A DNA stretch of 63,816 nt, the filler included, from Octopus bimaculoides (lineage: Eukaryota), in the NCBI RefSeq assembly GCF_001194135.2. It is 7 parts of 6 records of this genome, joined end to end, with 100 filler letters (N's around TTAATTAATTAA, not from the genome) between each part and the next. Parts side by side here need not be neighbours in the genome. Positions count along the whole stretch, not along the records: positions 1 to 20,775 come from NC_068981.1; positions 20,876 to 28,005 come from NC_068989.1; positions 28,106 to 44,349 come from NC_068983.1; positions 44,450 to 54,426 come from NC_068986.1; positions 54,527 to 57,282 come from NW_026309291.1; positions 57,383 to 59,522 come from NC_068989.1; positions 59,623 to 63,816 come from NC_068996.1. One strand, 5' to 3'. Below are positions 10,907-61,600 of this stretch, piece after piece. The notes under the pieces are model-generated. The model was not told the origin of the DNA. It made no database searches and worked only from the letters and a program-made list of their open reading frames with translations. Made by a program: the position numbers and the translations under genes. Within the stretch, counting starts at the first letter, position 1; each line of letters opens with the position of its first letter.

Positions 10907-10952
10907 AAAACTGTTACTCAGAGTTTCACGTTCCCATTCATCGGACAATTTT
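10907..10952 (-). ncRNA. type-I hammerhead ribozyme motif (U4C variant), Penelope-type terminus
   Basis: AAAAUUGU-CCGAUGA-AUG(GGAA)CGU-GAA-ACUC(U)GAGU-A-ACAGUUUU: 8-bp helix I, GUA site. Confidence 0.7.
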
Positions 10953-12477
10953 GTTAGAATGGAACAGAAATGACGATATAATCAAGCAAAAACAACAAAA
11001 AAAAACTAGTTTAAAGGATACACCTTTGAAAACGGTTTTGTTTCATTGGTCCTTTCAACTAACAGTCTTAAGCATGCAATGGACAAAATAAATTCAGTAT
11101 AAATTCATCCTATTGTAAAATCGAAGAAAACCTTGAATTGAAGGAGAGATTCCAAATACATATGGTAAATAATCATATACAAAATATAAGTCAATTAATA
11201 CATTAAAATTAAAATAAAAAATTTTTGCGCTGTATTACGTTTTAATTTTAATATCACCTAGGGATACAGTGAAATTGTCAGTAGAAGGACGTTGGATAGC
11301 TAACAAGGTGGGAGGGTCATAGGCCAATGGTTTGAAGGTTATTGCAACCAAGGAGTAGACCTGCACCATCAGACAAAGACTGGCATCAGCTAGCAAGTTG
11401 AGATACTACTGCAGGGCATTCTCATTGGTGACTAAGCTCATTGTATTCTTGTACATCACTTGCTACTTGGAGTGAAGTCCCAGAGAGACAGTCTGGTGGG
11501 AGCACAACAACAACTGCCTTACTCACCAACCAAAGACATTTTGTTCTGAACAGAAGTTCATATTAGGCTATGACAGACAACTGGCACCACCAATTATGTA
11601 TATAACCAAGTAGGTAAATTACTAATAATTGTCCTTGAATGGCATCTAATCCAATTCACTGTGAACAACAGTTAAAAAAGGAAATTGTAAAGGACTAGTC
11701 CTACTGTATTCATCATTGATAGGAAAACCCACAGAATATTAATAATACTGCATTGTGTTTGCAATAGAGATAGAGCAAGCTGCCAAAGTTGAGCTCATGA
11801 CTCTGTTCCGATAGCAAATGCTGATCATTATATTGTACATACGCATGTGATTTAGGGTAATAAGATTACAGTACACCAGTCATTGTTGATATAGGGATTG
11901 CTACTCCATTACAAAAAGAAAACATTTTTATACAATCGTGCTAACAGACAGATGCATGCATGCATACACATACACACACAAACACACACATACACACACA
12001 CACACACACACACATACATACATACATACATACATACATACATACATACATATGTGTGTGTTTAAGTGTATGTGTGCCTTTGTGCTTATATGTGTACATA
12101 TAATAAAATAATACCAGATGTTGCCTGGGAAATAAAGGATGCAGTTGGTGGCCAATCTGTTGAATAGGAATCATTGTAATTCTGCTTAAATTTATATTTT
12201 TGAGCACAGTGTGTATATTATTATGTAACAGATATACACATAACTTTTTTACTTCTGGAAATATTACTCATGTTTCAATAAAACATTGTAAACAGAAATA
12301 TCACTCCAGTTGTGACAATTCCATCATTATATATGCAATGTATACACAAGATATACAGTGTGTAAGGTATTTGAGGACATACCTTTTTGGGTCATTGCTG
12401 CATTTTTTTGCTAACTCTATAATTTTTGTTTCAGAAAATAATAATGGCACATGAAATCAAAATCGAACTAAATTTGT

Positions 12478-12761
12478 AGACTGGCACCCTTGCCAACGTC
12501 TCTTTCATTGAACACTAAACTCAGCTTGTGAAGACCTGTTGGGGCAAGCAAAAGCGAAATCGTGATGGCATCTGTACCAGTGGATCACTAAGAGCACTGT
12601 CCAAACGTGATTGTTGCCAGAGCACCAGCTGTCTGGCTTCCATGCCGGTGGCACGTAAATAGCACCATTTGAGCATGATCCTTACCAATGTCGCCTTCCT
12701 GGCACTTGTGCCTGTGGCACATGAAAAGACATTCGAGCGAGATCGTTACCAGTACCGCTGG
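12478..12761 (+). mobile_element. RTE 3'UTR modular fragment
   Basis: GCCGGTGGCACGTAAA.AGCACC modules as in the RTE UTR at 17440-17600. Confidence 0.6.
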
Positions 12762-13437
12762 TGTTATGCATACAAAATTTCCAGCAAATGTCATGGTTTT
12801 AGGAGTTGTCAGCAGCAAAGAACAAGCGATGCCTCCTTACTTCTTTCCACAAGGCCTTAGAGTTAACTCTGCCATCTACATTGAGGTTCTGGAAATAATT
12901 GTTAAGCCCTGGATAGACAGTGTATACAATGGNNNNNNNNNNTGCCATCTACATTGAGGTTCTGGAAATAATTGTTAAGCCCTGGATAGACAGTGTATAC
13001 AATGGAAGGCCATATGTGTTTCAGTAAGACTCTGCACTGGCTAGTAACACAGGAATGGATAACTGAAAAGTTTCATGATCACATAACCCCTAACATTTGG
13101 CCTCCTAATTCCCCAGATCTCAATCCATTGGACTATTACATGTGGAGCATTGTTGAGAGAGAGAGTTCAATGAACATGCCCATAACACCAAAGATTCTTT
13201 GGAAGCTGCCATAATCAAAGTAATGTCCAAAATGAACCAAACCACTTAGTTCGAGCATGTAGATGATTTAGATCTCATACAGTTGTTGAAGCTGAAGGTG
13301 GCTTTATTGAATAACATTATAGAAAAGAAGGTTTATTTTTATCCTGATAGCATTTTTTAATAAATAAAGTAGTTATCTGTTATTATATATCTGTTTTTTA
13401 TAAACATAAATCTGTCCTCAAATATCTTACCTTGTAT
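12762..13437 (+). mobile_element. maT-like (DD37D) Tc1/mariner transposase 3' fragment
   Basis: KFPANVMVLGVVSS..PPYFFPQGLRVN..WPPNSPDLNPLDYYMWS. Confidence 0.8.
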
Positions 13438-13459
13438 ATACACATAAATATTTAAAAGA

Positions 13460-13680
13460 GTATATGTGTGTGACTGAGTTTGTCCCCACCCAGTACTTGA
13501 CAAGTTGTGTTAGTTTGTTTAGATCCCTGTAACCTAATGGTTTGCCAAAAGAGACCAATAGTATAAGTAGCAGGCTTTAATAAATAAGTACTAGGGATAA
13601 TTCATTTGACTAAAAGTCCTTCAAGGGGGTGCCCCAGCATGACCGCAGTCTGATGACTGAAACAAATAAGAGATAAAGCC
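13460..13680 (+). mobile_element. SINE family A 3' half
   Basis: GGTGCCCCAGCATGACCGCAGTC..GACTGAAAC tail. Confidence 0.8.
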
Positions 13681-60130: not shown

Positions 60131-60146
60131 ACTGCGCATGCTCAGT
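60131..60146. promoter_or_regulatory. NRF1/Ewg-like palindrome in a small CpG-rich patch
   Basis: ACTGCGCATGCTCAGT. Confidence 0.3.
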
Positions 60147-60365
60147 GATAGGTACCCGATCGCCGCATACCAGCCATATTTCACTCTCAACAATATAGAT
60201 ACATACATAAAAATTAAATATTAGCTACTGGGAGGCAATGTGTGTATGCGTGAGTGTGTGTGTGTGAATGCGTGTGTGTGTGCGTGTATCTCCCTATCTA
60301 TTTATCTATCTTTCTAGACAGATAGATAGATAGATAGACAGACAGACAGACAGACAGACAGATCA

Positions 60366-60831
60366 CAAAAAATCAGTAGGTATGAGAGATGAAAATATTT
60401 ATTATACCAGTTGATAGCCGTAGGATGACAGCTATTTCGCAGCCTTCATCATGCAATAATAATTTTAGTCTATAATAAATTATTTTACATGTGTACACCA
60501 ATATGCATGTTACACATTCTAAAATACAACTGTACATTTACAAACCAATGCAGGTTTAGAAAGCTAGCTCTTCAGATCAACAGTACTTTCTGCTTACTTC
60601 AGTTTTTCAACTCTAAAGGCAGTTCATCTGAAGAGCCAGCCTTCTATATCTGCATTTATTTGTAAATGTACCATAGCACAATGTGTAACATGCATATTGG
60701 TACAGACATGTGATATAGTTTATTATACATTAAAATTATTATTGCATGATGAAGGCTGCGAAACGGCTGTTATCCTACGGATATTAAGTGGTTAAATGAA
60801 TATATTCACCCCTCATACCTCCTGACATTTT
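60366..60831. repeat. ~210-bp-arm imperfect inverted repeat, 48-nt spacer
   Basis: arms 60366-60577 and 60626-60831 are colinear reverse complements. Confidence 0.92.
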
Positions 60832-61365
60832 ATCGTCTATACACTCCACATGAAAGAATTTCATCGAGTGGACCTCTTGGATTTCAGCTGCATAGAATTC
60901 TACATTATACTCCTCCGTATTGGATTACTTTGTGGTAAGCTAGCCAGGTTCCCCAGAGGAGCTTTTCTGTTATTTCACAGGATTCTATGAATGCATATAT
61001 AGCACATTATATATATNNNNNNNNNNNNNNNNNNNNNNNNNNNNNNNNNNNNNNNNNNNNNNNNNNNNNNNNNNNNNNNNNNNNNNNNNNNNNNNNNNNN
61101 NNNNNNNNNNNNNNNNTTAATGTCACGTTTTATAAATCATATAAAGCGCTTTTCACCTAATCGTGTATGATTTTCAAATTTTTTTAACCATTATGCCGAA
61201 CACCACAGGAAAATACGAAAACTAAAAGAACAGCACATACGCTAGGACACAACAACCTCCTAAGCAGACCGAGTGCAAATATGAACAACATATGGGAACC
61301 GGTATTAAGGAAGGATAGGAGAATATTAGATTTATAAGCCTTAAAATTCAATCCACAGTTACCTA

Positions 61366-61600
61366 CAGGCATATGGCGTAGTGGTTAAGAGCGCGGGCTA
61401 CTAACCTCAATATTCCGAATTCGATTCCAGGGCAGTGACCTGAATAATAATAACAACATCGAAAAATAGCTTAGCAATGAGAACCCAGGTTTGAAATTTC
61501 CCCAAGACACCTGATGAAGGCTGGAGGGTATATCAGCTGAAATTTTGTGTCAACAACAAACAAGATGAGGACAAATATCAGTCAAATGTAAATAATGTAA
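61366..61600 (+). mobile_element. tRNA-headed SINE carrying a hammerhead motif (61506-61551)
   Basis: A-box TGGCGTAGTGG, loop CT-ACT-AA, B-box-like ATTCGATTCC; GACAC-CTGATGA-A-GGCTG(GAGGGTATAT)CAGCT-GAAA-TTTT-GTGTC. Confidence 0.65.

Follow-up and report, generated by a model that had tools for sequence, protein, structure and literature searches.

The window analysed here is a stretch of 63,816 nucleotides, filler included, joined from seven parts of the Octopus bimaculoides genome (assembly GCF_001194135.2); it has a GC content of 34%, contains 2,096 N and holds 112 tandem-repeat rows, mostly microsatellites. A first-pass annotation had read from it a dispersed population of nine minimal hammerhead ribozymes with unrelated helices and had assigned them to a Penelope/retrozyme-type system. 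Each of the nine motifs sits at the coordinates and on the strand listed below, and six of them are supported as hammerheads, five by a graded hammerhead score and the one at 15050 by homology, while those at 36807, 45595 and 54269 are at chance level. The six supported motifs represent five families, with 15050 and 47437 in the same one, and are very probably the decayed, 5'-truncated and likely inert relics of pseudo-long terminal repeats (pLTRs), carrying minimal type I hammerheads, from several families of Penelope-like elements (PLEs).

Family A: an endonuclease remnant upstream of a hammerhead

The features of the element that contains the motif at 61506 (family A) are as follows.

61215–61319, plus strand: remnant of the C-terminal part of a GIY-YIG endonuclease of Penelope type, found by phmmer and by profile; frameshifted in the window copy
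61368–61432, plus strand: tRNA-like head between endonuclease and ribozyme, with an A-box at 61374–61384 and a B-box at 61419–61428
61506–61551, plus strand: minimal type I hammerhead with an exact CUGAUGA core (score 25.4); predicted cut after 61546
48753–48781, plus strand: isolated 3' tail fragment, identical in sequence to the loose end found after 61599 in many family A reads

A 49-residue frame upstream of the hammerhead gave 22 protein matches at E<=0.001 with phmmer, 21 of which have the same C-terminal segment; the other (P0007) is unrelated and was removed before profile building. The best match listed for the remnant is an Octopus vulgaris protein with 75% identity, and a further relative comes from O. 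sinensis. Among 12 longer proteins related to the O. vulgaris match, 4 have both RVT_1 and PF26215 upstream of the endonuclease segment, with RVT_1 confirmed on rescan in two of three relatives, and the top Atlas matches of the segment are GIY-YIG clusters (0.95; the family is on 11–28% of members). Pfam and NCBIfam returned no name for the short endonuclease fragments. A profile built from 16 relatives of the endonuclease has a single match in the window, at 61215–61319 (iE 3e-12), 190 bp upstream of the hammerhead and on the same strand. As judged from these protein sequences, a reverse transcriptase (RT) domain followed by the C-terminal segment corresponds to the layout of PLEs with a C-terminal endonuclease.

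Two RNA runs and two DNA runs were mapped to 61117–61625, yielding 9,315 and 7,242 RNA reads and, from organisms A and B, 29,069 and 24,663 DNA contigs, totals that are not equal to copy numbers. Family A is a very abundant repeat in both organisms. The helix III palindrome and the G10.1–C11.1 pair are lost from the window copy of the hammerhead, and the majority letters of the family bring both back: the letter at 61538 restores the G10.1–C11.1 pair and those at 61543 and 61544 restore an ACGU palindrome, the restoring letters being in the majority at 55–79% in the RNA runs and 63–81% in the DNA runs. Because the majority letters repair the broken fold, family A matches the published consensus of minimal hammerhead ribozymes (min-HHRs; PMC4209133 supplement; the papers given here by PMC or bioRxiv number are cited from parts of their text or files). 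The stop at 61492 in the window copy is a minority state in the family, and the reading frame across the ribozyme shows homology with a distant relative, at 45% over 33 aa (E 2e-5). Read depth climbs toward the 3' end of the element, and many reads go on past 61599 into a short tail of the kind that PLEs are expected to have; such tails, like inverted 5' copies, are hallmarks of PLEs (PMC8557442, PMC11167929).

The head of family A

Six contigs of other family A copies (2, 3, 5, 9, 11 and 12) span the endonuclease into the head at 61368–61432, whose boxes are A- and B-box-like. The majority letters of the family make the B-box complete. The box pattern, weak alone, has two matches only in the window, this head and one at 38271 (shuffle mean 0.5, maximum 5). 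At 61368 the RNA depth approximately doubles, 108–316 loose ends per run gather, opposite-strand (inverted) joints gather as well, and many family A copies begin exactly there; 61368 is thus likely the 5' edge of the family A pLTR.

These observations also bear on a different explanation, in which some of the families would be non-autonomous hammerhead retroposons, driven by RNA polymerase III (Pol III) and using PLE enzymes in the manner of Sm-alpha, with short family A copies among them. The completed A/B-box head and the depth step with its cluster of loose ends are consistent with this, as is the order of the schistosome elements resembling short interspersed nuclear elements (SINEs), where a Pol III promoter is followed by a hammerhead (PMC6765202). 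The head is, however, contiguous with the end of the endonuclease, so that a pLTR boundary explains the step equally well, and no pile-up of starts is listed in the family A reads, which are unstranded. Neither ARAGORN nor Rfam called a tRNA in the head, so a tRNA origin is only a lead. We therefore regard Pol III-driven retroposons as an unlikely source for any of these families, and PLE pLTRs as the preferred one.

Two further observations concern the head. An opposite-strand joint from 61368 to 61444 is carried by 170 and 134 RNA reads and by no DNA contig in the two mapped runs, and possibly stems from a single expressed locus whose head is inverted. The second A/B-box head, at 38271–38325 on the plus strand, lies within a different repeat, likely a tRNA-derived SINE.

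Family B: a high-copy family with a U6 core

Three copies of a second family (family B) were found in the window.

47437–47471, minus strand: minimal type I hammerhead (score 19.9), a match to the strict descriptor
15050–15085, minus strand: second hammerhead, decayed, found by homology to 47437 (score 15.1, E 0.73)
38691–38791, plus strand: third copy, 5'-truncated, between (TA)n tracts, found by homology and alignment

The motif at 47437 has the core CUGUUGA, with U at position 6, an ACGU palindrome and U at position 17, with a predicted cut after 47441; as it stands, helix I closes both ends and helix II contains G10.1–C11.1 after the extra base. The 15050 copy is 77% identical to it over 152 columns and shares the CUGUUGA core, with G at position 17 (H17 fails) and a mismatch in helix II. 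The third copy starts 1–3 nt past the predicted cut, without the ribozyme core. This start raised the idea that copies begin at the ribozyme cut, which gained no support: in neither family is there a depth step at the cut, nor are ends listed there. Separately, a 315-bp tandem repeat at 14226–14938 (2.2 copies, 86%) borders the 15050 element on its 3' side.

Family B is high-copy in organisms A and B by the mapped RNA and DNA runs, in totals that overstate the family since the mapped stretch includes other repeats; RNA depth over the motif itself is ~1,000–1,350 per direction (run X21). Both multi-copy families, A and B, therefore occur in two organisms. Position 6 (47464) is absent among the 40 of 69 family B difference positions listed, and each DNA run has four A>T places, all of them elsewhere (47400, 47585, 47610, 47677), so that the canonical A6 makes up less than 10% in both DNA runs. 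CUGUUGA is thus the family-level core of family B and not a product of decay, with a letter other than A or U possible at this position. At position 17 (47441), C is present in ~62% of RNA reads, as against ~10% (X1, under the same species label as the RNA) and <1% (X14) of DNA depth; a subfamily with the favoured triplet is thus over-represented in RNA, possibly through one or a few highly expressed loci. In half of the family B RNA reads, 10 additional bases that the window copy does not have stand immediately upstream. A search of metagenome contigs with the family B pattern gave no matches.

No remnant of a PLE open reading frame (ORF) lies beside the family B motifs, as searched with a profile from one clade; we infer the PLE origin of this family from its anatomy and its (TA)n flanks. 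Such an origin is documented for family A only, and would extend to family B and to the motifs at 10907, 53201 and 34911.

Screening of the window and the remaining motifs

The other six motifs are as follows.

10907–10952, minus strand: probable minimal hammerhead (score 22.9, E 0.01), a strict match 30 bp from (AT)n
53201–53244, plus strand: probable minimal hammerhead (score 25.7), 25 bp from (TA)n
34911–34959, minus strand: possible decayed hammerhead (score 18.4, E 0.11), the weakest of the six supported motifs
54269–54316, plus strand: hammerhead-like motif, unconfirmed (score 12.5, E 2.6), with core CCAAUGA and a perfect 8-nt palindrome
45595–45650, minus strand: hammerhead-like motif, unconfirmed (E 3.6, in another register)
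36807–36855, minus strand: hammerhead-like motif, unconfirmed (E 17)

The window was scanned with a strict descriptor against 30 local dinucleotide shuffles, and with the graded score against 200 shuffles; this score was built after the motifs had been seen and therefore leans in their favour. The exact core together with a perfect palindromic helix III gave no match. Allowing one core mismatch gave two (10907 and 47437; shuffle mean 0.03), and allowing in addition one palindrome mismatch and any base at position 17 gave four (10907, 15050, 47437 and 61506; shuffle mean 0.63), a number reached by none of the 30 shuffles. The loosest setting gave 10 matches against a shuffle mean of 7.0, and 8 of 30 shuffles had that many, so the loose matches are not above chance. 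By graded score the top of the window is held by 53201, 61506, 10907, 47437 and 34911, in that order; five matches thus reach >=18, where the shuffles average 0.145 and never exceed 2, while a reversed-sequence control scored up to 16.4. The excess over chance thus varies from motif to motif. Further loose matches (26127, 32025, 34680, 39062, 49079 and others) were rejected as being at chance level by graded score. Of the 162 Rfam matches for the window, the 150 listed include no hammerhead family, and Rfam gave none on 61340–61620. Monomer folding gave a notable z-score for one of the nine motifs (61506; −2.96), although monomer energies are uninformative for motifs of the dimer type.

Relaxed hammerhead patterns are frequent in AT-rich DNA, and the set could on that ground be mostly chance. 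The matches of the loosest descriptor, the E-values of 2.6–17 for three motifs and the reach of the reversed control are what this would predict, and 54269, 45595 and 36807 are indeed indistinguishable from chance. The excess of matches at >=18, the restoration of lost pairs by majority letters and the endonuclease remnant upstream of 61506 argue the other way; a chance origin is refuted for families A and B, and for most of the set it is very improbable.

The motif at 10907 has an 8-bp helix I, a CCGAUGA core with C at position 4, a 9-nt palindromic helix III and a weak helix II; that at 53201 has a 3-bp helix I, one extra core base, a 5-bp helix II, a perfect 10-nt palindrome and C at position 17, the insertion term of the score having been added with this motif in view. 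The G10.1–C11.1 pair is absent from both, and their anatomy suggests that both are likely minimal hammerheads. A second copy of 53201 near 57764 was rejected as a chance look-alike. With two core mismatches and an imperfect 12-nt palindrome, 34911 is possibly a decayed hammerhead. Among the unconfirmed motifs, 45595 combines an exact CUGACGA core with broken helices, its nearest dinucleotide tract being 814 bp away, and 36807 has a badly mismatched core, its fit being limited to GAAA, the palindrome and a short helix I. Frames upstream of 54269 may resemble the end of an endonuclease, broken by stops and frameshifts and with no profile match; a 31-bp look-alike of this motif at 62633–62663 covers its 5' half only, without the GAAA half, and was rejected as a second copy.

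Across the set, the palindrome is perfect in 10907, 15050, 47437, 53201, 36807 and 54269 and is restored by majority letters in family A. The core (C3-U4-G5-A6-N7-G8-A9 and G12-A13-A14-A15.1, with U16.1-H17) is exact in family A and has U6 in family B, while 10907, 53201 and 34911 deviate as single copies. The core variants claimed by the first-pass annotation therefore hold at family level for U6 in family B; most others are single copies and may be decay. Its density of one motif per 7 kb falls to about one per 11 kb when the six supported motifs are counted. As to the dinucleotide tracts that it noted, six of nine motifs lie within 120 bp of an (AT)n, (GT)n or (AC)n tract compared with 17% of random positions, an excess that its own selection of motifs may have inflated.

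Cleavage, circles and tandem units

None of the nine window copies is intact, in the sense of combining an exact core with a helix III palindrome that is perfect. Because every copy falls short of this and none has a tandem partner, the window hammerheads are likely inert, and to speak of a population of ribozymes overstates activity, all the more with three of the nine at chance level. Sites with many molecule ends are listed nowhere in family A and only at the stretch edge in family B; end data from unstranded RNA-seq are uninformative on cleavage either way. Among the RNA joints listed for families A and B there is no abundant go-back joint, in libraries ill-suited to small circles.

The retrozyme half of the original assignment finds no footing in these data. 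Non-LTR retrozymes would be tandem units of 170–400 nt self-cleaving into circular RNAs; molluscs are among their hosts (mussel, PMC7229834), and they arise from PLE pLTRs and leave monomers behind as solo copies (bioRxiv 2026.07.22.740005), which speaks for this reading. None of the nine motifs, however, lies in a tandem unit or array in the window, the joints listed give no sign of abundant circles, the motifs are of the minimal PLE type, and family A adjoins a PLE ORF. Retrozymes are therefore a very unlikely source of the set. The 315-bp tandem repeat beside 15050 was considered as a retrozyme and rejected, with no motif inside it among the 30 scored matches. The Penelope half of the assignment, by contrast, is upheld by the endonuclease remnant of family A, by the two very high-copy families and by an anatomy that fits the min-HHR consensus.

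Comparison with known hammerhead elements

Min-HHRs were described in the pLTRs of metazoan PLEs by Cervera and de la Peña (2014; PMC4209133), with several unrelated consensus families per genome, mostly as solo copies from truncated PLEs, and with the molluscs Lottia and Crassostrea in the alignment. Families A and B resemble these in the extra base after A9, the G10.1–C11.1 pair, the palindrome, the NUH triplet, the type I order and the short helix I. They differ in that the U6 core of family B falls outside the CUGANGA descriptor and that family A adds the tRNA-like head. Octopus is absent from the part of the supplementary files of that paper that was searched.

In PAc, a Poseidon element from Anolis carolinensis (Frangieh et al. 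2024, PMC11167929), the ORF starts in stem II of the ribozyme, similar to the family A frame that runs through the ribozyme; further likenesses are an optional tail of 30–40 bp, AT-rich targets and the lack of RNA-seq ends at the cut. Cleavage of PAc in vitro is protein-assisted and not needed for insertion (PMC11167929). PAc was assayed in vitro; the window copies are decayed. In Sm-alpha and Sj-alpha (PMC6765202) a type I hammerhead is preceded by a Pol III-type promoter, a likeness that would apply to family A only; their hammerheads are canonical and often in tandem, while the putative head of family A lies between the end of a PLE endonuclease and a minimal hammerhead. Perreault et al. 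(2011, PMC3088659) report A6C, U4C and an insertion that follows A6 among natural hammerhead variants of low activity; the A6U change of family B was not found among the variants in the parts of that paper cited, and here it marks a very high-copy family.

No report of an octopus hammerhead was found in the literature, including the parts of the octopus repeat papers PMC13282606 and PMC8967140 that were searched, with Lünse et al. 2017 outside the search; nor was a PLE pLTR with a tRNA-like head, with Repbase and Dfam outside the search.

Other repeats in the window

At ~57640–57810 two similar motifs of ~45 nt lie ~115 bp apart, each with a G run and a matching C run. Pfam identified a Mos1-type transposase helix-turn-helix at 32445–32972, within 32442–32972 (minus strand), and a weak RT match at 26479–27039, within 26479–27378 (plus strand). 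The stretches 17807–18262 (minus strand) and 29284–29688 (plus strand) have no Pfam match, and may be pieces of long interspersed nuclear elements and DNA transposons. Self-BLAST revealed abundant short repeats with many copies, likely SINEs (6889–7400, 20876–21101, 36460–36641, 37042–37263, 41303–41624, 51165–51772, 61622–62019 and others). An inverted repeat pair at 62089–62211 and 62669–62789 (72% over 123 columns) encloses a 10-bp tandem array and a look-alike of the 54269 flank.

Discussion

If the supported motifs are relics of PLEs, their distribution would follow from the way in which these elements insert. A PLE protein with RT and GIY-YIG activities would nick AT-rich or microsatellite DNA, and reverse transcription would begin just downstream (3') of the ribozyme; 5' truncation would be frequent, so that most insertions keep only the ribozyme end as a solo pLTR end, leaving lone motifs next to (AT)n tracts. 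Where intact elements stand in tandem, a pair of motifs would join by way of the palindromic helix III and be cleaved following position 17, a dimer reaction that would probably be slow and protein-assisted. Unrelated helices would represent separate PLE families. In O. vulgaris, 6.83% of the genome consists of PLEs, in 190 families (PMC13282606 supplement), and the density of motifs in the window is what so many families would give.

Several observations weigh against this interpretation. No remnant of a PLE protein lies beside the eight other motifs, by a profile drawn from one clade only, and the window contains only one copy each of 10907, 53201 and 34911. Read ends at the NUH triplet, looked for as a trace of cleavage, do not pile up at the predicted cut of either family A or family B, in RNA libraries that are unstranded and fragmented. 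As to covariation of the helices, the read tables give majority letters and not pairs, and family B provides no compensatory pair change, its two full copies differing by breaks rather than swaps. Even so, we consider 5'-truncated pLTRs of several PLE families to be a highly probable origin for the six motifs.

More speculatively, and with considerable doubt on our part, family A may be an autonomous PLE whose pLTR is headed by a captured, tRNA-derived Pol III promoter and which spawns a PLE-mobilised, SINE-like hammerhead retroposon, which would connect PLEs directly with elements of the Sm-alpha type, while the family B motif may serve as a protein-binding or dimerisation fold or be rescued by the PLE protein. 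The mass amplification of a U6 core that is expected to cleave poorly suggests either such a non-catalytic fold or such a rescue.

Reports of animal genomes that each contain solo minimal hammerheads from several Penelope families go back to 2014, and the presence of these motifs therefore matters little in itself, although it likely adds a cephalopod example to the minimal hammerheads of PLEs. Less ordinary, and possibly of more consequence, are the tRNA-like head inside the 61506 element and the mass amplification of the U6 core. A very abundant family with this core beside a family with a canonical core offers a natural experiment on the need for catalysis and, together with the dispensability of cleavage in vitro (PMC11167929), bears on the question of why PLEs keep their hammerheads.

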